A DNA stretch of 64,000 nt from assembly GCA_039794085.1 (NCBI GenBank), contig JBDIWC010000003.1, positions 64,001-128,000 of the forward strand, read 5' to 3'. The position numbers were made by a program, and so were the translations under genes. The notes beneath the pieces were generated by a model. That model was not told where the DNA came from. It did no database searches and saw only the letters and a program-made list of their open reading frames with translations. Position 1 is the stretch's first letter; each line of letters begins with the position of its first letter. The stretch comes from Gemmatimonadales bacterium (GTDB taxonomy: Bacteria > Gemmatimonadota > Gemmatimonadetes > Gemmatimonadales > GWC2-71-9). Below, in pieces: positions 29,359 to 62,819 of this stretch.

Positions 29359-29383
29359 ACCCCTGCGGGGTCCTCGCGATGAC
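29356..29383 (-). repeat. Partial GTCATCGCGAGG-family REP copy
   Basis: Reverse complement GTCATCGCGAGGACCCCGCAGGGGTCC. Confidence 0.75.
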
Positions 29384-35310: not shown

Positions 35311-35738
35311 AGAAGTTTGAAGTTTGAAGTGGACGCCGGATCTCAACTGGAGCGGGATCGTCACCCCGGCGGAAGCCGGGGTCCATTTTCCAGAGTGGCG
35401 ATCAGCCTCGATCCACGGGTGAAGCCCGGGGCTCGGCGCCCGCGGCGACGGGTCCTGAAGGATGGTGACTGTTTCGTGGACCGGAATCATCCCGTGAACG
35501 GAGTCATCCCGAGCCGCAAGGCGAGGGATCTGAGGAGGTCGCGGGTGTACTCCCCGCGGGCCAGACTCCGAAGTCAGGACGTGAAGTTGTTGGTTGTCCT
35601 GGTGGCGCCTGGTTGGGGCGGTGTCTTCGTGAGCCCTTGCCTGCCCGACCATGGACCCCGGCGTTCGCCGGGGTGACGCTCCGATGTACCTTCGAGGTCC
35701 CGAACACTTCAAACTTCAAACTTCGAACTTCAAACTTC
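35311..35738. repeat. Composite inverted-repeat element: (GAAGTTT)n + GTCACCCCGGC-type REP ... inverted REP + (CTTCAAA)n, with an internal GTCATCCCGAG REP
   Basis: CGTCACCCCGGCGGAAGCCGGGGTCCAT at about 35339, its inverse at about 35651-35678, GTCATCCCGAGCCGCAAGGCGAGGGATCT at about 35503. Confidence 0.8.
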
Positions 35739-40852: not shown

Positions 40853-41369
40853 GTCATCCCGAGTGAAACGAGGGATCTGAGACCGCTGCAGGCGTACTTC
40901 ACGTCGTCTGGATCCACGATGGTCGCATGACACCCTCCGCTGGGCGTTCTCGGCCTTGGTTGGTATTTCCCGGGGCTGACGCCCCTTGCTCGGCCAATTG
41001 AGGTGGCTGACGCCACCGGGAACCGCGACGAACCCCCGGATGGGCTGTCATCGCGAGGCGGCGAATGGAAGTGTGAAGTTCGAAGTGTGAAGTTTGAAGA
41101 GTGACCAGGTGTCATCCCGAGTGAAACGAGGGATGATCTGAGACGCCTGGGCGATCTCGTGGGCGGAGGCCTGCGTCGGGAGACGATCGCGGGCCATCAT
41201 GCCAAGACCGAGCCTGTTGGGTTCCGGCACGATGGCCGGCCTTGTGTCTCGCCGGGACGGCACGGGCTCACGGGATCGCCACGGGCCCCCTGTCGCGAGG
41301 AGGCGAAGCCGACGTGGCGATCCGGGCCCTCGCGATGACAGCGTTCCCCCTGCGGGCCCTCGCGATGAC
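40853..41369. repeat. REP cluster: GTCATCCCGAGTGAAACGAGGGAT copies plus a nested GTCATCGCGAGG doublet and a (GAAGTGT)n array
   Basis: Copies at about 40853, 41047, 41111, 41265-41339 and 41350-41369. Confidence 0.85.
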
Positions 41370-43967: not shown

Positions 43968-44300
43968 GAAGTGTGAAGTGCGAAGTGTGAAGTTCGAAGG
44001 GTGGTCGTGGGGGGGGGGGACGGCACTGCGGATCCGGGTGAGCACCCGGAAGGCTGTCATCGCGAGGCGGCGAAGCCGCCGTGGCGATCTCGTGAGCGAA
44101 GGCCTGCGTCGGGAGACGATCGCGGGCCATCATGCCAGGACCAAGCCTGTTGGGTTCCGGTACGATGGCCGGTCTCACGTCTTGCCGGGTCACTATCGGC
44201 TCACGGGATCGCCACGGGCCCTGCGGGCCCTCGCGATGACAACATTCCCCGCGCAGGCCCTCGCGATGACAACATTCCCCGCGCGGGCCCTCGCGATGAC
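43968..44300. repeat. (GAAGTGT)n array followed by an inverted GTCATCGCGAGG REP doublet (REPIN-like) and tandem partial REPs
   Basis: REP + at 44056, REP - at 44198-44240, partial copies ending 44270 and 44300; spacer homologous to 41150-41270. Confidence 0.88.
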
Positions 44301-50591: not shown

Positions 50592-50863
50592 GTCATCGCG
50601 AGGCGGCGACGCCGCCGTGGCGATCTCGTGCGCGGAATGTGGCGCCGGAAGAGAATGCCCGGCCTTCCTGCCGGAGTCCGTCATCGCGAGGCGGCGACGC
50701 CGCCGTGGCGATCTCGTGAGCGGGAGCTGGCTCTGGGAGAGGATGCCCGGCCTTCATGCCAGGACGGGCAGGAAGGGGTCCGGCAGGAAGGCCGAGGTGG
50801 TGTCACGCGTAGTCGGCATGGGTTCACGGGATTGCCACGGGCCCTTCGGGCCCTCGCAATGAC
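50592..50863. repeat. GTCATCGCGAGG REP cluster (two + copies, one - copy)
   Basis: Copies at 50592, 50680 and 50821-50863. Confidence 0.88.
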
Positions 50864-53463: not shown

Positions 53464-55992
53464 ATGGCATCTGCCTCCCCGCAGCGGGCGCCGATTTCGC
53501 TGTCGCCGAACGCGATGACCGTCCTTGAAAAGCGCTACCTCATCAAGGATGATGCGGGGAACCCGGTCGAACGTCCCGAAGATCTCTTCCTGCGCGTGGC
53601 CCGGGTGGTGGCGGCCCCCGATCGGCAGTACGGCGCCTCGGACGGGGCGGTCGACACCCTCGCCGACGCCTTCTATGACGTGATGGCCCGCCGGCTCTTC
53701 ATGCCGAACTCCCCCACCCTGATGAACGCGGGACGTCCCTTGGGGCAGCTCTCGGCGTGCTTCGTCCTCCCGGTCGACGATGCGCTGAGCAACGGCGAGA
53801 GCGGCATCTATGACACCCTGCGGTCGATGGCCCTGGTGCATCAGTCGGGAGGGGGCACCGGCTTCAGCTTCTCGGCGCTCCGTCCCCGCAACGACATCGT
53901 GCGCTCCACCATGGGGGTGGCCTCGGGGCCGATCTCCTTCATGTCCCTCTTCGACGCCTCCACCGATGTCGTGAAGCAGGGAGGGACCCGCCGGGGCGCC
54001 AACATGGGGATCCTCCGGGTCGACCATCCCGACATCCTGGATTTCATCGCCTGCAAGGACGATACCTCGCGGATCACCAACTTCAACATCTCGGTGGCCG
54101 TCACCGACGCCTTCATGGCCGCGGTCGAGGTGGATGGCCAGTACGATCTTCTCCATCCCCGCACCCACGAGGTGGTGGGGCAGCTCCGCGCCCGCGAGGT
54201 CTGGGAGCGGATCATCCACGGTGCCTGGAAAACCGGGGAGCCGGGGGTGTTCTTCATCGACCGGGCCAACTACTACAATCCGGTGCCCCACCTCGGGTCG
54301 TACGAGGCCACCAACCCGTGCGGAGAGCAACCGCTTCTCCCCTACGACGTCTGCAACCTCGGGTCGATCAACCTCGGAGCCTTCGTCTCCGCCACCGGCA
54401 CCGACCTCGACTGGGACCATCTCCGGCAGGTGGTCCACCTGACGACGCACTTCCTCGAGAACGTGATCGACGCGAATCACTATCCGCTGCCTGCCATCAC
54501 CGACCTGGCCCAGCGGATCCGGCGCATTGGACTCGGGGTCATGGGGCTCGCCGACGTCTTCGTCCGGCTCGGTATCCCCTACGACTCGGAGGAGGCCGTC
54601 GCCCTGGGACGCAAGATCCAGCGCTTCGTCGACGAGGAGGGGAAGAACGAATCCGAACGGCTCGCCGGGATCCGCGGACCCTTCCCCGAATGGGACCGGA
54701 GCATCTGGGGGCCCGATGCCACCTGTGCCCGCGATGCCCAGGGCCACCGGATCCGCCCCATGCGGCGGCTCCGCAACTGCAACGTGACCACCGTGGCGCC
54801 CACCGGCACCATCTCGATCATCGCCGGGTGCAGCTCGGGGATCGAGCCCCTCTTCGCGGTGGCCTTCATGCGGAACCAGGCCGGCGTGCTGATGCCCGAC
54901 GTCAATCAGGACTTCGTCGACATCGCCCGGCGCGAGGGGTGGTACTCCGACGCCCTCATGCACCGGATCGCCGAGGCGGGACACCTCCAGTTCGACGAGG
55001 TGCCCGAGCAGTGGCGCCGGGTGTTCGTCACCGCCAACGCTATCCGACCCGAGTGGCACATCCGGATGCAGGCCGCCTTCCAGGAATACAACGACTCGGC
55101 CATCTCCAAGACCTGCAACTTTGCCCACGAGGCCACCGAGGAGGACGTCGAGGAGATCTACCGCCTCGCCTACCGCCTGGGGTGCAAGGGAGTCACCGTC
55201 TATCGCGACGGGAGCCGCGACATGCAGGTCCTGAGCACCGGATCCACCGCGAAGAAGGTCCAGGAGCAGGCCACCGGGTCCGGATCCGCCCAGGCCCGGG
55301 GCGACCTCGCCGCCATGTCCTCCGCCGCGCCCGACGGCCGCCGGACCGAGAGTGCCGACCTGCGGGGGGAACTCGCCGAGCTGCGGGCCGAGAACGAGCG
55401 CCTCCGCCGCGTGGTGCACGAACTCGAGTCCGAGAATCTCCAGCGTCGCCAGAAGCGGAGCCGCCCCGAAATGCTCCGGGGCACCACCCGCCGGGTCGAC
55501 ACTCCCCTCGGCACCATGTACGTCACCATCACCGAGGACGACAAGGGGCAGGCCTTCGAGGTCTTCATGAGTCTCGGCAAGGCGGGCGGAGCCCTCATGG
55601 CCGACGTCGAAGCCCTCGGTCGTCTCATCAGCCTCGCCCTCCGGTCCGGGATCTCCATGAAGGAGATCCACCGCCAGCTCCGGGGCATCAGCTCCGACCG
55701 GGTCATCGGTCTCGGCGCCAGCCGCGTCATGTCCGTCCCCGATGCCGTCGGCATTGCGCTCGAACGGTGGATGATCGAGAAGCAGGGGATCCAGGAGGAA
55801 CTCCTCCCCGGCAGCGCCCCGGCCCCCGCCGATTCGATCGTCCGCACCGTGTCCCGCGGCGGAGAGGAAACCCTCTTCACTCCCCACCAGGCCGAACACC
55901 TGCTCGGTGCCTGCCCCGACTGCGGCTCCCAGCTCGAGTTCGCCGAAGGGTGCATGAAGTGCCACGTCTGCGGCTTCAGCGAGTGCGGATGA
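53464..55992 (+). CDS. nrdJ: Adenosylcobalamin-dependent (class II) ribonucleotide reductase with TSCPD domain and C-terminal zinc ribbon
   Basis: PNSPTLMNAG, QLSACFV, QGGTRRGANM, TNPCGEQ, CNLGSINL, APTGTISI, KGVTVYRDGSR, CPDC...CHVCGFSEC. Confidence 0.95.
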   Translation: MASASPQRAPISLSPNAMTVLEKRYLIKDDAGNPVERPEDLFLRVARVVAAPDRQYGASDGAVDTLADAFYDVMARRLFMPNSPTLMNAGRPLGQLSACFVLPVDDALSNGESGIYDTLRSMALVHQSGGGTGFSFSALRPRNDIVRSTMGVASGPISFMSLFDASTDVVKQGGTRRGANMGILRVDHPDILDFIACKDDTSRITNFNISVAVTDAFMAAVEVDGQYDLLHPRTHEVVGQLRAREVWERIIHGAWKTGEPGVFFIDRANYYNPVPHLGSYEATNPCGEQPLLPYDVCNLGSINLGAFVSATGTDLDWDHLRQVVHLTTHFLENVIDANHYPLPAITDLAQRIRRIGLGVMGLADVFVRLGIPYDSEEAVALGRKIQRFVDEEGKNESERLAGIRGPFPEWDRSIWGPDATCARDAQGHRIRPMRRLRNCNVTTVAPTGTISIIAGCSSGIEPLFAVAFMRNQAGVLMPDVNQDFVDIARREGWYSDALMHRIAEAGHLQFDEVPEQWRRVFVTANAIRPEWHIRMQAAFQEYNDSAISKTCNFAHEATEEDVEEIYRLAYRLGCKGVTVYRDGSRDMQVLSTGSTAKKVQEQATGSGSAQARGDLAAMSSAAPDGRRTESADLRGELAELRAENERLRRVVHELESENLQRRQKRSRPEMLRGTTRRVDTPLGTMYVTITEDDKGQAFEVFMSLGKAGGALMADVEALGRLISLALRSGISMKEIHRQLRGISSDRVIGLGASRVMSVPDAVGIALERWMIEKQGIQEELLPGSAPAPADSIVRTVSRGGEETLFTPHQAEHLLGACPDCGSQLEFAEGCMKCHVCGFSECG

Positions 55993-56055
55993 GGCACGAC
56001 AGGCGGTCGGCGGTCGGCGATAGGCGGTAGGGGGGGAGAGGGAGAAGGGAATGCG

Positions 56056-56339
56056 GTCATCGCGAGGGCCCGCAGGGTGTGGTCATCGCGAGGGCCCATG
56101 CTGTCATCGCGAGGGCCCGCAGGGCCCGTGGCGATCTCGTGAGCCCATGCCTGCCAGGCGGGACGCAAGGTCGGCCATCCTGCCGGAGTCGGCCATGCCG
56201 TCATCGCGAGGGCCCGCAGGGCCCGTGGCGATCTCGTGAGCCCATGCCTGCCAGGCGGGACGCAAGGTCGGCCATCCTGCCGGAGTCGGCCATGCTGTCA
56301 TCGCGAGGGCCCGGAGGGCCCGTGGCGATCTCGTAAGCC
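56056..56339 (+). repeat. Tandem GTCATCGCGAGGGCCCGCAGGGCCCGTGGCGATCTC REP array, 97-bp period
   Basis: Heads at 56056, 56082, 56103, 56200, 56297. Confidence 0.93.
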
Positions 56340-56702
56340 GATGCCGGGGTCCCGAGACACCGGGTTGGCCTTCATGCCACACTCACCAGCGTCTTCCAGT
56401 GGGTTATGCAACAGCCTCCCGCCAAGATCAGCCCAGGTGGGATTCGTCTCTTCGATCAAGGCGACCTTCTTCGACCGGCGACCGGCCTTGATCTGCTTTT
56501 CGCGAGCAATCGCACCCGCAGCGCTTTCCGATGTTTCGTAGTAGACGAGCTTCCAAACTCGGTATCGCTTTGCGAAGGAACCGCCGTAAGTACCGAGCCG
56601 GTGCTGGAGGAGGCGACGGCAGAGATCGGATGTCATGCCGGTGTAGAGAACGGAGTTTCTCGTGTTCGCGAGGATGTACACGAAGTAGGGACGTGAGCGC
56701 AT
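56298..56702 (-). CDS. Standalone GIY-YIG nuclease (UPF0213/YhbQ-like)
   Basis: YFVYIL...LYTGMTSDL.RR..QH, LVYYE, AIAREKQIK, NPTWADL. Confidence 0.92.
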   Translation of the reverse strand: MRSRPYFVYILANTRNSVLYTGMTSDLCRRLLQHRLGTYGGSFAKRYRVWKLVYYETSESAAGAIAREKQIKAGRRSKKVALIEETNPTWADLGGRLLHNPLEDAGECGMKANPVSRDPGIGLRDRHGPSGPSR

Positions 56703-56781
56703 TCCGGAGTCTACTGCGCATCGGGATCTGACTCATGGCCCATTGAACGCGGGAAGGGGCACAAGTAACGCCGCACCAGCG

Positions 56782-57229
56782 GTCATCGCGAGGGCCCATG
56801 CTGTCATCGCGAGGGCCCATGCTGTCATCGCGAGGGCCCGCAGGGCCCGTGGCGATCCCGTGAGCCCATGCCCGCCGGGCGCGACGCAGCGTTGGCCATC
56901 CCGCCGAAACCCCACCTGTCCGGGCTCTGGTGTGAAGGCCGGCCATCCGGCTCCCGAAGCCGACTTCCGCTCACGAGATCGCCACGTCGGCTTCGCCTCC
57001 TCGCGATGACGACCTCCGCGAGGGCCCGCAGGGCCCGTGGCGATCCCGTGAGCCCATGCCCGCCGGGCGCGACGCAGCGTTGGCCATCCCGCCGAAACCC
57101 CACCTGTCCGGGCTCTGGTGTGAAGGCCGGCCATCCGGCTCCCGAAGCCGACTTCCGCCCACGAGATCGCCACGTCGGGCTTGTTGCGAAGGCCCGAAGG
57201 GCCTGTGGCAATCGCCTCCTCGCGATGAC
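56782..57229. repeat. REP array and two tandem REPIN-like doublets (about 188-bp period) upstream of the GIY-YIG gene
   Basis: Heads at 56782, 56803, 56824; inverted copies ending 57010 and 57229; about 56829-57010 duplicated at about 57017-57229. Confidence 0.92.
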
Positions 57230-57361
57230 GACCTCCGCGGGGTCCCGCGCCTCCTTGCCTTGACGGCTCGCGCCCCTACCGTGAAACGAGCCCCCGGCCC
57301 ATATTCCCCGGTCATCCCGTACCGTCTCCACCCTGACACGCCACCCGGCCGAGGAATTCGC

Positions 57362-57622
57362 ATGCCGAACGAAGAGCTGAAACCGATCTCTCCCGAACGC
57401 GTGGCCGAGGAACTCCGCCGGATCTGTGGTTCGTTCCGGAGGGGCGAGATCAAGGCGGATGAATACGAGCATCGGTTTGCCCGCATGATCGGTGAACTGC
57501 GGGACCGCCGGATCGACGGCACTCGCGCCGAGATTCTCGCCGTCCTCTCCCCGTTGCAGCTCGAGGGCGTCGTGTCCCCCACCGAGTGGTTGCGCCTCAC
57601 CAAGCAACTCGGCCTTGCCTGA
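57362..57622 (+). CDS. Hypothetical helical protein (86 aa)
   Basis: GAGG SD, ATG 57362; FRRGEIKADEYE is SHOCT-like. Confidence 0.65.
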   Translation: MPNEELKPISPERVAEELRRICGSFRRGEIKADEYEHRFARMIGELRDRRIDGTRAEILAVLSPLQLEGVVSPTEWLRLTKQLGLA

Positions 57623-58535
57623 GGCGCCCGCCGACGGCCTGACCCCCCGGCCGGCCCGTCCCGCCACCCGGGCCCTGGGCCCCGGCGGGCCGGAGGTGTC
57701 CGTCCTCGGCCTCGGAGGCATGCCCCTCTCCATCGCGGGGCGCCCGGACGAGGCCCAGGCGATCGCCGTGATCCACGCCAGCCTCGACGCCGGCGTCTCC
57801 CTGATCGACACCGCCGACGTCTACTGCCTCGACCACACCGACATCGGGCACAACGAGCGGCTCGTGGCCAAGGCCCTCCGCACCTGGCGCGGCTCTCCGG
57901 AGGACGTCGTGGTGGCCACCAAGGGGGGACTGGAACGTCCGGGAGGGCAGTGGACCCGCAATGGCCGGCCGGAGCACCTGCGCCGCGCGTGCGAGAGGTC
58001 ACTCAAGGCGCTGGGGGTGGATCACATCGATCTCTACCAACTCCACGCCCCCGATCCCGACGTTCCCTTCGAAGAGTCGGTCGGGGCGATCGCCGACCTG
58101 GTCCGGGAAGGAAAGGTCCGCTGGGCCGGGCTCAGCAACGTGTCGGTGGAGCAGTTGCGCCAGGCCCGGGCCATGGTTCCCGTTCTGACCGTACAGAACC
58201 GGCTCAATCCCTTCTTCCGCGAGGCGATCGACGAGGGAGTGGTGGACGAGTGCGCCCGTCAGGGAATCGGTTTCCTGGCGTACAGTCCGGTCGGCGGCGG
58301 GCGTCTCCAGAAAAAGCTCCCCGATCACCCGGTTGTGGCGCGGATCGCCCGCGAGGTGGGGGCGTCCCCTCACGCCGTGGTGACGGCCTGGGTGCTCGCC
58401 CGGGGGCCCACGGTGTTCGCCATTCCGGGGGCCCGGACCATCCCTCACGCCCTGGATGCAGTGGCCGCCGCGAATCTCAATCTGAGTCGGGAACAGCGGG
58501 CGGCGATCTCGGAGGCGGAGTTCCCTGTCACGTAG
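57615..58535 (+). CDS. Aldo/keto reductase
   Basis: LGLGGM, IDTADVY, VATKGG, SLKALGVDHIDLYQLH, GLSN, YSPVGGG; start uncertain. Confidence 0.92.
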   Translation: MPEAPADGLTPRPARPATRALGPGGPEVSVLGLGGMPLSIAGRPDEAQAIAVIHASLDAGVSLIDTADVYCLDHTDIGHNERLVAKALRTWRGSPEDVVVATKGGLERPGGQWTRNGRPEHLRRACERSLKALGVDHIDLYQLHAPDPDVPFEESVGAIADLVREGKVRWAGLSNVSVEQLRQARAMVPVLTVQNRLNPFFREAIDEGVVDECARQGIGFLAYSPVGGGRLQKKLPDHPVVARIAREVGASPHAVVTAWVLARGPTVFAIPGARTIPHALDAVAAANLNLSREQRAAISEAEFPVT

Positions 58536-58538
58536 GCT

Positions 58539-59020
58539 GTCATCGCGAGGACCCATGCCGTCATCGCGAGGGCCCGCAGGGCCCGTGGCGATCCCGTGAG
58601 CCCATGCCTTCCTGGCACGACGCAAGGTTGGCCATCCTGCCGGAGTTCTGCCATGCCGTCATCGCGAGGGCCCGCAGGGGGCCGTCATCGCGAGGGCCCG
58701 CAGGGCCCGTGGCGATCCCGTGAGCCCATGCCCGCCTGGCACGACGCAAGGTCGGCCATCCTGCCGGAGTTCTGCCAATGGGCCCCGGCATGAAGGCCGG
58801 CCACCCGCTCCCGGCGTCGGCCTCCGCTCACGAGATCGCCACGGCGGCCAAGGCCGCCTCGCGATGACGGCTCAGGCATGAAGGCCGGCCGCCCTCTCCC
58901 GAAGCCGACTTCCGCTCACGAGATCGCCACGTCGGCTTCGCCTCCTCGCGATGACGGCCTCCGTGCGGTCCCGCGCCTCCTCGCGATGACGGCCTCCTTC
59001 ACACTTCGAACTTCAAACTT
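58539..59020. repeat. GTCATCGCGAGG REP array (four + copies, three - copies) ending in a TTCRMAC heptamer array
   Basis: Heads at 58539, 58560, 58658, 58684; inverted copies ending 58868, 58954, 58990. Confidence 0.9.
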
Positions 59021-59064
59021 CCGGGAAGGGGCCGCGGAGGAGGGGCCCGATTACCTTTAGGGTC

Positions 59065-60309
59065 ATGACCGCCATGCCCCGCAGGGACACCCTCACCGTC
59101 CGCATTGGCGACGTCCCGGTGGGGTCCGCCCACCCCATCGTCGTCCAGTCGATGACCAACACCGACACCGCCGACATCCCCGGCACCATCGCCCAGGCCG
59201 AGGCCCTGGCCCGGGCCGGAAGCGAGCTGGTCCGGGTCACCGTCAACACCGAGGACGCCGCCCGCGCCGTGCCCCACATCGTGGAGGGGCTCGCCGCCCG
59301 CGGCACTCCGGTCCCCATCGTCGGCGACTTCCACTACAACGGGCATCTCCTCCTCACCCGTCATCCCGACTGCGCCCGCAGACTGGCCAAGTACCGCATC
59401 AACCCCGGCAACGTGGGGGGCAAGCGCCAGGACGAGCACTTCCGCGCCATCCTCGACGTGGCCCTGGCCCACGAAAAGCCGATCCGGATCGGGGTCAACT
59501 GGGGCTCCCTCGACCAGCAACTCCTCACCGAGCTGATGGACGCCAACGCCGCCCTCCCCGCTCCCCGTGCGGCGCGGGACGTCACCATGGAGGCGATGGT
59601 CCAGAGTGCCCTTCGGTCCGCCGCCTTCGCGGAATCGGTCGGGATGCCGGCCGACCGGATCATCCTGAGCGCCAAGGTCAGCGGGGTGCAGGACCTGATC
59701 GACGTCTACCGCATGCTCGCCGCCCGCTGCCGCTTCCCCCTCCACCTCGGCCTCACCGAGGCGGGGCTCGGCATGAAGGGTGTCGTCGCCTCCGCGGCCG
59801 GACTCGCCGTGCTCCTGCAGGAGGGAATTGGAGACACCATCCGGATCTCCCTCACTCCCTCACCCGGCGGCGATCGCACCGAGGAGGTGCGGGTGGGGCA
59901 GCAGATCCTCCAGTCCCTCGATCTCCGGAGCTTCACGCCCCAGGTGACCAGCTGCCCCGGCTGCGGCCGGACCACCAGCACCTTCTTTCAGCAGATGGCG
60001 GAAGACATCCAGAACCACCTCCGGGAGCGTATGCCGGAGTGGAGGGTGACGCACCCCGGCGTGGAGGACCTCAAGGTGGCGGTCATGGGGTGCGTGGTGA
60101 ACGGGCCCGGGGAATCGAAACACGCCCACATCGGCATCTCGCTGCCCGGCACCTTCGAGGACCCCAAGGCGCCGGTGTATGTGGACGGCCGGCTGCATGT
60201 CACACTGAAGGGGGACGCGATCGTGCCCGAGTTTCTGCGCATCCTGGAACAGTATGTGGACACCCGGTACCCGGCCGAGCCAGGAGCCCCCATCGGCGTC
60301 GCGCCGTGA
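59065..60309 (+). CDS. ispG: (E)-4-hydroxy-3-methylbut-2-enyl-diphosphate synthase
   Basis: [54 protein letters not shown]. Confidence 0.97.
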
Positions 60310-61001
60310 TCGCCGATCTCCCCCTGCTGGAACGGCCGCTGGCGGCACTTCCCGTCATCTTCGGCGCGGGGCTCGTCACCAGCCTCACGCCGTGTGTCTA
60401 TCCGATGATCCCCATCACCGCCGGGATTCTGGGCGGCGAGGGCGCCGTGGGCCGGTCGCGGAAACGCACCGTGGTGCTCACCGGGGTCTATGTGCTGGGG
60501 CTCGCGCTGGTCTACGCCTCACTGGGTCTTCTGGCGGGCCTCACGGGGACGCTGTTCGGGACGGTGAGCTCCAATCCCTGGGCCTACTTCCTCTTCGGGA
60601 ATCTGCTCCTGGTGCTTGGACTCGGCATGCTGGATGTCTTTCCCATGGCGGCCCCCCAGCGCTGGGTGGCCTGGGCCTCCCGATTCGGCGGCGGGTCGGT
60701 GGGCGGCGTGTTCCTGATGGGGGCCACGTCGGGACTCGTGGCGGCGCCCTGCGGCGCGCCGGCCTTCGGTGCCATTCTCACGTTCGTGGGCGGCACCGGG
60801 AGCCCCCTCTGGGGCTTCATCTATCTCTTCGTGTTCTCGCTCGGCATGACGGCGCTGCTGGTGGGGGTGGGGCTCTCGTCGGGCCTCATCGCCTCGCTCC
60901 CCAGGCCGGGGCGCTGGACCGGGATGGTGAAGAAGGCCGGCGGCGTGCTGATCCTGGCGATGGCGGAATATTATTTCGTGCAGATGGGGAAGGTACTGTA
61001 G
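60306..61001 (+). CDS. CcdA/DsbD-beta family thiol-disulfide transporter
   Basis: [12 protein letters not shown] and AAPCGAP; six TMs. Confidence 0.88.
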
Positions 61002-61041
61002 GCGGTAGGCGGGAGGCGATAGGCGATAGGGGAAACGCCCC

Positions 61042-61223
61042 AGGGGCGATCGCGCAGCGTCGCCCGAGGCCCGGATGTTCCCGGGAACGTTTCGCAGGGG
61101 CGATGCGCAGCGTCGCCCGAGGCCCGGATGTTTCCGGGAACGTTTTACAGGGGGTGACGCATGCGTCGCCCGTGCCCCGGATGTTCCAGTAGCCATATTC
61201 AAGGGCGACGCCCAGCGTCGCCC
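61042..61223 (+). repeat. Four degenerate GGGCGACGC..GCGTCGCCC REPs in tandem (about 53-nt period)
   Basis: Copies at about 61042, 61096, 61149, 61202; same family as 50536. Confidence 0.82.
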
Positions 61224-61248
61224 GAGCTTTCAGATGCAAGGAGTTCTC

Positions 61249-61761
61249 ATGAAGCGCACCATCCTCGCCCTCGCCGCCCTCGGGGCCCTCACGGCCCTCC
61301 CGGCCGAGGCCCAGTTCGACGAGGGCCTCCCGGTCGGCAGCAAAGCTCCGGTCGTCGTCGTCAACGATCTCGACGGGAACCCCTTCGACCTCGGCACCGT
61401 AATCGGGAAGAAGCCGGTCTTCCTCGAGTTCTGGGCCACCTGGTGCACCATCTGCGAGGAACTCCTCCCCACCGTCAAGGCGGTGCACCGGAAGTACGGC
61501 GACCGGGTCGAGTGGATCGGGGTGAACGTGACGGTGAACCAGTCGGTGAACCGGGTCCGGCGCTATCTCGAGACCCACGAACCCCCGTTCCGCACCCTCT
61601 ACGACAGCAAGGGAGCCGCGGTGCGGGCCTACGAGGCTCCCACCACGTCTCATGTGGTCGTGGTGAATGCTCAGGGGATCGTGGTCTATACGGGGAGCGG
61701 CGGAAAGCAGGACCTCGAGGCCGCCATCAAGCTGGCGCTGGGAGACGGGGGGGGGGCCTGA
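61249..61761 (+). CDS. TlpA-family thiol-disulfide oxidoreductase
   Basis: Signal peptide; FWATWCTIC; cis-Pro APT. Confidence 0.9.
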   Translation: MKRTILALAALGALTALPAEAQFDEGLPVGSKAPVVVVNDLDGNPFDLGTVIGKKPVFLEFWATWCTICEELLPTVKAVHRKYGDRVEWIGVNVTVNQSVNRVRRYLETHEPPFRTLYDSKGAAVRAYEAPTTSHVVVVNAQGIVVYTGSGGKQDLEAAIKLALGDGGGA

Positions 61762-62336
61762 TGCCCGGCGGCAGGCTCCTCGGCGTGGCCGGAGTGGCGG
61801 CCCTCCTCGTGGCGGCGCCTCCCGGCGCCCGGGAGGGGGCGGCGCAGGAGCGGACCGGGATCCGGGTTCGCATCGTGGGGGCCCCGGCGGTGGGGAGGGA
61901 GGCCCCGCAGGTGGAGGCGCCCTACGTTACCCGGGCGGGGCCGGGGCCGGCCGACCAGCCCTTCCGGCTCTCGGCGGAGCTGGGCCGGGCGGTGATCATC
62001 CTGATCGGCGCCGAGGATGAGTTCCTGCGGGAGCTGGGCGCCCGGGCCGACTCGGCGATGCCGGGGATCCAGGTGGCGGTCCTGGTGCGGGAGGATGTGG
62101 CCCGGGCCGCGGAGCATGCCGCGGCGCTGGACATCCCGTTCAAGCTCCTGGCCGACCCCGGCGGGGAGATCCACCGGAGCTTCGGGGGCCGGGACGCGGG
62201 CGGCCGGGGCGGGGCCACCGCCTGGGTGGTGAACTCGCTGGGGACGATCGAGGCGAAGCTGGAGGGGATGGTGGCCGGGGATGTGTCCCGGATGGCGCGG
62301 CTGGAGACGATGGCCCGGGCCGCGGCGGGGCGGTAG
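61761..62336 (+). CDS. Exported redoxin/AhpC-TSA-fold protein lacking cysteines
   Basis: VGREAP, FRLSAELGR.VI, IPFKLLADPGGEIHRSFG, AWVVN..G.I; no Cys. Confidence 0.6.
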   Translation: MPGGRLLGVAGVAALLVAAPPGAREGAAQERTGIRVRIVGAPAVGREAPQVEAPYVTRAGPGPADQPFRLSAELGRAVIILIGAEDEFLRELGARADSAMPGIQVAVLVREDVARAAEHAAALDIPFKLLADPGGEIHRSFGGRDAGGRGGATAWVVNSLGTIEAKLEGMVAGDVSRMARLETMARAAAGR

Positions 62337-62387: not shown

Positions 62388-62819
62388 GTCATCGCGAGGA
62401 GGCTGTCATCGCGAGGGCCCGCAGGGCCCGTGGCGATCCCGTGAGCCCATGCCGGCCCGACGAGACGCGGGGTTGGCCATCCCGCCGGAACCCCCGGATG
62501 CTGTCATCGCGAGGGCCCGCAGGGGCAATGCCGTCATCGCGAGGGCCCGGCAGGGCCCGTGGCGATCCCGTGAGCCCATGCCGGCCTGACGAGAGACAGG
62601 GCTGGCCATCCCGCCGGAACTCCCGGAGGCTGTCATCGCGAGGGCCCGCAGGGCCCGTGGCGATCCCGTGAGCCCATGCTGGCCTGACGCGACGGCAAGG
62701 CGGGCCATCTCACCGGAACCCTCCCCACCCGGGCTCCGGCAGGAAGGCCGACCTGGCGTCTCGCGGCATCGGAATCGGCTCACGGGATCGCCACGTCGGC
62801 TTCGCCTCCTCGCGATGAC
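62388..62819. repeat. GTCATCGCGAGG REP array (five + copies, one - copy)
   Basis: Heads at 62388, 62405, 62503, 62533, 62632; inverted copy 62777-62819. Confidence 0.9.

Follow-up and report, generated by a model that had tools for sequence, protein, structure and literature searches.

In the gap between nrdJ, a gene for a class II ribonucleotide reductase, and a gene for an 86-aa protein, a short gene for a GIY-YIG nuclease is enclosed on both sides by arrays of a GTCA-tagged hairpin repeat, and further copies of the repeat are found elsewhere in the 64-kb stretch of DNA analysed here (the window; Table 1). The window belongs to contig C3 of a genome of 4.16 Mb, 115 contigs and 66.8% GC, labelled G000 in our genome set.

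Table 1. Features of the locus, of the window and of related loci in the host genome (positions are those of the window unless a contig is named)
Feature	Position	Strand	Remark
nrdJ, left of the cassette	53464..55992	plus	TIGR02504 and NF006417 above cut-off
Left (downstream) array	56056..56330	plus	5' stubs at 56056 and 56082
Full repeats of left array	56103-56136, 56200-56233, 56297-56330	plus	the last one gives the stop codon
Ssn-type single-domain GIY-YIG nuclease gene	56298..56702	minus	134 aa; PF01541 match and catalytic residues
Candidate -10 hexamer TAGACT	56708..56713	minus	5 nt before ATG
Right (upstream) array	56782..57229	both	stubs at 56782 and 56803
Inverted doublet in right array	56824-57010		ssDNA fold of -55 kcal/mol
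Second, altered doublet copy in right array	ends 57229	minus
86-aa protein gene, right of the cassette	57362..57622	plus	no Pfam or NCBIfam match
Lone repeat copy (tag and stub)	29372..29383	minus	motif search
Repeat cluster, 3 copies	41047..41369		motif search
Repeat cluster, 4 copies	44056..44300		inverted doublet and stubs; motif search
Repeat cluster, 3 copies	50592..50863		2 copies here in sister genome G001
Repeat cluster, 7 copies	58539..58990		motif search
Repeat cluster, 6 copies	62388..62819		motif search
Ssn paralogue	C22:47709-47978		CCGAG-type repeats, 108 GTCATCCCGAG copies in genome
Ssn paralogue	C38:8648-8917		canonical SRM; 181 published-pattern matches genome-wide, some by chance
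Ssn-like gene	C73:14732-14998		catalytic Glu replaced by Met; no repeats
RAYT-like Y1 gene	C3:130907-131248		directly bracketed by own GTAG-type hairpins

As an earlier note on this DNA had proposed from the letters alone, the gene codes for a standalone GIY-YIG protein: a Pfam profile search of the product gave PF01541 at E 4e-14 and no second Pfam family. The protein is made of a 93-aa core and a 41-aa tail which runs into the left array. Its core residues Y9, Y20, R30, E68 and N87 are conserved, Y9 and E68 being invariant and Y20 present in at least 90% of an alignment of 25 rows, and Gly74 is the mark of the type that is paired with the repeat in the window. The Tyr-Tyr-Glu spacing is 11 and 48, compared with 11 and 47 in SsnA (Y6/Y17/E64 in the numbering of PMC11893778), a member of the single-domain GIY-YIG proteins called Ssn, which is a near-synonym of cd10448 (Chenal 2025, PMC11893778); Ssn is defined there by clade and is enriched for the repeat pattern SRM. 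A search of NCBIfam returned no family for the nuclease, and a search of PDB by sequence gave 1zg2 as the sole relative (E 0.0085) and no SsnA structure.

The lower GC content reported for the gene is real, with 58% in the first 96 codons, 60% over the whole gene and a GC3 of 71% vs 86-91% in three neighbouring genes, although 3.2% of 288-nt windows are equally low. The TGA stop is indeed supplied by a repeat, as the reverse complement of the TCA at 56297. However, this is a local matter of read-through: among the best 80 of 563 homologues the stop lies inside a repeat in just 3, the median tail is 5 aa compared with 41 aa here, and we rejected a repeat-supplied stop as a trait of the family. 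If the hexamer TAGACT just upstream of the start codon serves as a -10 element, the transcript of the nuclease gene would possibly be leaderless; TATGCT is found at a similar distance from the start of the C22 paralogue.

The repeat was counted by its 12-mer GTCATCGCGAGG, which occurs 34 times in the window at no more than 1 mismatch, while 1.08 occurrences are expected and the maximum in 100 shuffles was 4; this agrees with the 30 or more copies estimated by eye and with the places where they had been seen. Exact copies number 100 in the genome, 36 of them on contig C3. The repeat type can be written GTCAYYGCGAG...GNRGCRAYC, with a tag of (C/T)GTCA and not GTAG, and as ssDNA the unit forms a bulged hairpin that leaves the tag unpaired, at -10.9 kcal/mol. 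Complete units of tag, hairpin and GNRGCRATC account for 18 of the 34 window copies, the others being 5' stubs or altered copies. None of the 34 matches the published SRM pattern, HGTCWYN(0-2)YYVSBRHN(0-5)WNVSBRGN(0-2)RNCYNB, and Rfam gave nothing at 55900-59100 up to E 1. Strand polarity was not seen (64 vs 54 on contigs of clear GC skew), which is a weak test as doublets cancel.

The tandem units of about 97 bp described before were confirmed in the left array, where two units are identical at 96 of 97 positions. The copies around the gene form the largest cluster of the genome, with 10 copies, if both flanks are pooled; taken apart, the two flanks hold 5 and 5 copies and fall behind the clusters at 58.5-59 kb and 62.4-62.8 kb, so the claim of a densest cluster depends on how the flanks are counted. 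The outermost copies, at 56056 on the plus strand and at 57229 on the minus strand, make an inverted pair around the gene, and such bracketing is seen at 29 of the 49 loci with repeats on both sides among the best 80 of 563 homologues. Copies of the canonical SRM and of a CCGAG-type hairpin are also present in the window, at 35360-35680, 35503, 40853 and 41111, one of them inside the 41-kb cluster of the GCGAG repeat. In addition, simple runs of 7-mers (GGCGGTA, TGTTGGG, GAAGTGT/GAAGTTC, TGTCCTA) often adjoin hairpin clusters; they are seen at 56000-56050 and in many intergenic gaps of G000 and its sister genome G001, and differ between the sisters.

The gene and its hairpin arrays were probably inserted just downstream of nrdJ, ahead of the host gene that follows. 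The 86-aa protein gene directly follows nrdJ in the related genomes G002 (68%) and G004 (60%), where gene order is kept and the gap holds neither the nuclease gene nor an array; it is about 150 bp in G002 and about 290 bp in G004, compared with 1369 bp here. Among 30 nrdJ loci, 4 of which have less than 300 bp of downstream sequence and one of which, that of G016, is uninformative, the nuclease lies downstream of nrdJ only in G000 and G001. Thus the comparison of empty and filled sites suggested in the earlier note does find the cassette absent in G002 and G004, but with no clean junction: these sites are too diverged for the exact ends of the insertion at nrdJ to be recovered.

It could be supposed that an ordinary GIY-YIG gene of the repair type landed by chance in a repeat-rich gap, and repeats do abound in the spaces between the genes of this genome. 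We examined this with homologues from a protein search over part of the GTDB genomes, keeping the best 80 of at least 563 confirmed stretches; one search word was REKQIKAG, which biases the set to the Gly74 type. In these best 80 of 563, which span many phyla by record title, GTCAYYGCGAG is found no more than 500 bp from the gene at 74 of 80 loci and the published SRM pattern at 1 of 80. The repeat was hit 262 times in 97 kb close to the gene and 30 times in 343 kb of sequence more than 2 kb away, and the enrichment within 500 bp is about 30-fold over the 80 loci. In this set the homologues do not usually lack flanking repeats, and the enrichment refutes the chance reading, which is further opposed by the pairing of particular enzyme types with particular repeats and by six small GIY-YIG genes, which we take to be YhbQ-like, that have none of the three repeat types nearby (6/6); we regard this reading as having practically no probability left.

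The pairing of enzyme and repeat types can be followed on a tree of 94 of 133 proteins, 70 of them labelled by repeat type, from which 39 GCGAG-labelled rows and one short row were left out. The 88 Ssn-like rows stand apart from the 6 YhbQ-like rows of the outgroup, one of which is from G016, at 100/100. The nuclease falls, by proxy, within the Ssn clade, because five SRM-flanked proteins nest within the same 88-row group and because the C38 paralogue shares 47% identity with it over 86 aa (E 3e-25). Repeat type requires 5 changes on the tree vs 24.2 when shuffled, with 0 of 200 shuffles as low; the shuffles demonstrate clustering only, the bootstrap is unsettled and 52 of 91 inner branches are open. 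A single clade of GCGAG-paired enzymes is unsupported, at least 3 changes being forced by the starred branches. Among 84 distinct proteins of the host's phylum, all 13 parsed rows with Gly74 have the GCGAG type, and Trp at this position is divided into 41 rows of the CCGAG type, 6 of SRM, 14 with no repeat and 1 tie; 9 of the 84 were parsed otherwise, including a broken Gly74 gene of G002 without repeats. Hence the co-variation of repeat sequence with nuclease phylogeny, which the earlier note had proposed to test, is present.

The same pairing is repeated inside the host genome, which has five PF01541 matches, one of UvrC size and four small. Three of the small genes are each embedded in a different repeat family: the gene in the window in GCGAG repeats, the C22 paralogue in CCGAG repeats and the C38 paralogue in canonical SRM, its flanking repeats being near-NTS. 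Since unlike repeat types occur together in G000 as well as in G017, the pattern cannot be put down to host lineage by itself. The fourth small gene, on C73, is conserved in G001 (L106) and has a similar case in G002 (L091). Four proteins without the catalytic Glu (L091, L102, L106 and L109) have no repeat within 500 bp, and the C73 protein is possibly, judging from its residues, a domesticated form that does not cut.

A second alternative is that a transposase of the HUH type spreads the GCGAG repeats and that the GIY-YIG gene is an unrelated insert. The statement that no HUH transposase is present holds for the window, as PF01797 (HUH Y1) has no match at the nuclease gene or within the 64 kb; the genome has 5 matches, and the nearest, a RAYT-like gene, is 2.9 kb past the window end and 10 kb from the nuclease. 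This gene shares a repeat-rich zone with the nuclease and has 7 GCGAG clusters within 30 kb, and single GCGAG copies are found less than 1.5 kb from it and near a Y1 gene on C24. Yet its direct flanks are its own GTAG-type hairpins, and across unrelated loci the GCGAG repeat accompanies the GIY-YIG gene in 74 of 80 cases (best 80 of 563). What decides against the RAYT-like gene is this pairing across genomes and not the crowding, which cannot separate two genes in one zone. Moreover, a survey of CGTC-tagged repeats found no tyrosine transposase that they flank (Di Nocera 2013, PMC3733652), and we consider it very improbable that the RAYT-like gene is the source of the repeats. The region 2-4 kb past the window (C3:130200-132000) shows the Y1 gene bracketed by two kinds of repeats, a longer hairpin of the CCCCGGG type and GTAGGGGCG hairpins, of which the genome has 77 copies, apparently followed by a pair of a small antitoxin and a PIN-type toxin as read by eye.

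The crowding itself was measured with eight repeat patterns tried. Between 1.5 and 30 kb from the nuclease gene there are 8 clusters of its repeat vs 0.76 expected (uniform null, P 1e-6), and the other repeat families near this gene are not clearly raised (1 vs 1.1 and 2 vs 0.76). In G018 there are 5 repeat clusters near its gene vs 0.76 expected. Near the C38 gene one SRM sub-variant is crowded, with 4 vs 0.28 expected, and the CCGAG family shows no enrichment near the C22 gene (0 vs 0.76 expected).

A census of 201 family genomes, 29 of them with at least 5 complete copies of the repeat and 172 (including G083) with fewer, was made to relate the gene to its repeats; all candidate loci but G135:C148 were inspected, and none of the conclusions rests on G016 or G083. 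A near-complete Gly74 gene is present in 11 genomes, all of which have 7-103 repeat copies, and G252, G322 and G329 have a truncated Gly74 gene or a fragment within repeats. Among the 172 low-copy genomes only G002 has a Gly74 gene; the first motif of that gene is interrupted by a stop, and the genome has 0 copies of the repeat. At E 1e-28 no Gly74 gene is found in 15 of the 29 repeat-rich genomes, and in 14 of these (all but G233) also none at E 0.001; they include G360, with the most copies of all (225, in 350 contigs), G056 (84 copies) and two near-contiguous genomes, G330 (48 copies in 6 contigs) and G208 (26 copies in 4 contigs). The expectation that copy number tracks the gene is borne out in one direction only: the gene implies repeats (11/11), but the repeats do not imply the gene (14/29, with the 3 partial genes counted), in a census of incomplete assemblies where repeat-flanked genes are easily lost and related genomes are not independent. 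The refuting observation named in the earlier note, an equal abundance of the repeats without the gene, is in part what the census shows. The asymmetry fits repeats that outlive the gene, and also repeats that do not need it.

The latter possibility is the core of the most serious alternative, in which the enzyme is a hairpin-specific Ssn nuclease that does not make the repeats: replication slippage and recombination of the host spread them, and the gene rides along. Its points are the 15 gene-less genomes, the gene-less hot spots and the makeup of orthologous sites. One hot spot, on contig C21, packs 9 clusters into 65 kb with no nuclease gene among them; another, round nrdJ in G018, a different genus, has 6 clusters in 18 kb (G018:C3:275000-292500) with no nuclease and no remnant of ssn (best E 0.2). 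Of 60 clusters in G001, 33 were mapped to G000 with flanks mostly 90-97% identical, and 12 of the 33 have no motif match in G000. Ten such sites were aligned; 4 keep a decayed copy in G000 and 6 hold other sequence, and none of the ten shows a clean insertion with defined ends or a target duplication. Orthologous sites are instead patchworks in which simple repeats are mixed with members of several repeat families, and at one site a GCGAG doublet in G001 corresponds to a CCGAG doublet in G000 with the first 13 or so bases in common. The gap at about 60475-61786 of the window compares with G001:C71:2411-2650 (L195), where G001 has 6 GCGAG copies; there are none here, and G000 holds a different repeat instead.

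If the gene is such a passenger, it would be kept for a role in the host, for example cutting incoming ssDNA as SsnA does in Neisseria transformation; indeed, limiting the integration of transforming DNA in Neisseria is the sole in vivo role for Ssn given in the main text of PMC11893778. By itself this alternative leaves unexplained why 11 of 11 near-complete Gly74 genes are accompanied by at least 7 copies of their own type, why two genomes show a crowding of repeats round the gene and why no repeats stand beside the four Glu-less proteins. Taken as a whole, with repeats spread without the enzyme and a gene retained for the host, it appears to us possible but rather doubtful.

The reading that we prefer, with somewhat better than even confidence, is that of a predicted Ssn-type ssDNA cutter of its own GCGAG hairpin which probably seeds nearby copies through nicking and repair and not through transposition. 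GIY-YIG enzymes hydrolyse DNA without a covalent tyrosine intermediate or the strand-transfer chemistry of HUH enzymes. Accordingly, since strand transfer is lacking, the spread of repeats would need host repair primed from the nick, and nicking could at most start it. The hairpin would form when its strand is single, as in replication, transcription or incoming DNA, and the enzyme would then nick the ssDNA a few bases 5' of the tag, if it acts like SsnA. An inverted doublet would thereby be nicked just beyond each of its two ends, once on either strand. The freed 3'-OH may be repaired by copying another repeat, from which stubs, tandem units and doublets would arise; an inverted doublet may occasionally carry the gene to a new site, and repeats may outlive the gene.

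The steps of this scheme differ in strength. By analogy with SsnA, the nuclease very probably cuts ssDNA just 5' of the GTCA-tagged hairpin. SsnA was found to cut ssDNA upstream of the NTS hairpin, at a distance of a few nt, and to leave dsDNA and RNA uncut, and four Ssn homologues differ in specificity and cleave upstream of or near the repeat, in ssDNA only (PMC11893778); Mg dependence and specificity for one orientation are described there for the N. meningitidis enzyme. These data carry over by analogy only, because the repeat fails the published SRM pattern. Whether the nuclease amplifies the repeats is evenly balanced in our judgement, and nick-primed host repair is a reasonable fit, with about equal weight for and against, to the stubs, the tandem units and the swaps of family at one site. 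In the terms of the earlier note, that a GIY-YIG nuclease plays the role of a RAYT, the pairing with hairpins stands (74/80 of the best 80 of 563) and the making of copies is a possibility.

More widely, it is a tentative suggestion that Ssn nucleases supply the amplifier that CGTC-tagged REPs seemed to lack, in orthogonal pairs of nuclease and hairpin, three of them in this genome, with repeats spreading over short distances through hydrolytic nicking and host repair. Equally tentative is that the pairs are told apart partly by Gly74 vs Trp and form a transposase-free route to REPs. The maker of CGTC-tagged REPs was open in 2013, and the nuclease was put forward as a hypothesis in the 2025 Ssn paper. 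A genome that combines three nuclease-hairpin pairs with a fourth, catalytically dead gene makes a test bed for cross-specificity. As two of the three hairpin types escape the published motif, reports so far probably understate both the association of Ssn with repeats and the range of ssDNA cutters with different targets. Should the enzyme prove to be a mere passenger, the locus would be just one more ordinary case.

In the open-access literature we found no paper linking GIY-YIG with repetitive extragenic palindromic sequences, only PMC11893778 for SsnA/cd10448, and only unrelated matches for GTCATTGCGAG and GAAGCAATC. The pairing of GCGAG repeats with a nuclease thus appears unprinted in open-access text, and figures or supplements may show it. 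The idea of a GIY-YIG and hairpin system, whose novelty had been left in doubt, is largely described already, as the main text of PMC11893778 contains both the Ssn biochemistry and the analogy with REP/RAYT: NTS-ssnA-NTS is likened to IS200/IS605 transposases with REPs, and domestication is proposed. Empty sites and local crowding seem to be additions to what that paper reports.

Among known systems, YhbQ/UPF0213 (PDB 1zg2) is like the nuclease in being a small standalone GIY-YIG domain and unlike it in forming a separate clade (100/100) and in having no flanking repeats in 6 of 6 cases. In RAYT/REPIN systems, ssDNA hairpins with a 4-nt tag are recognised by TnpA-REP of the HUH Y1 family. They resemble the present locus in that one nuclease gene lies inside its own hairpins, each paralogue has its repeat family and inverted doublets occur; here, in contrast, the enzyme is a GIY-YIG hydrolase without PF01797 and the tag is GTCA, not GTAG. 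CGTC-tagged REPs, which were named by Di Nocera 2013 (PMC3733652) and 'apparently lack a dedicated transposase' according to its text, share the unpaired CGTC/TGTC tag, the intergenic location and the predominance of inverted dimers. Compared by the description in that text, their stems of 8-9 bp, loops of 4-5 nt and CCA tail differ from the inner variable hairpin, the bulges and the GTGA tail here. The closest system is Ssn/SsnA (PMC11893778), which shares a single GIY-YIG domain of about 95 aa with the same catalytic Tyr-Tyr-Glu spacing, and (C/T)GTCA-tagged hairpins on both flanks of the gene and through the genome. The hairpin here is longer than SRM, bulged and outside the published pattern, which marks a variant of the Ssn system and not an exclusion from it, and three types in one genome, with a Gly/Trp residue that tracks the type, seem to go beyond that paper. 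The locus is therefore a variant of the Ssn system described in 2025, to which the comparative results are a new addition.
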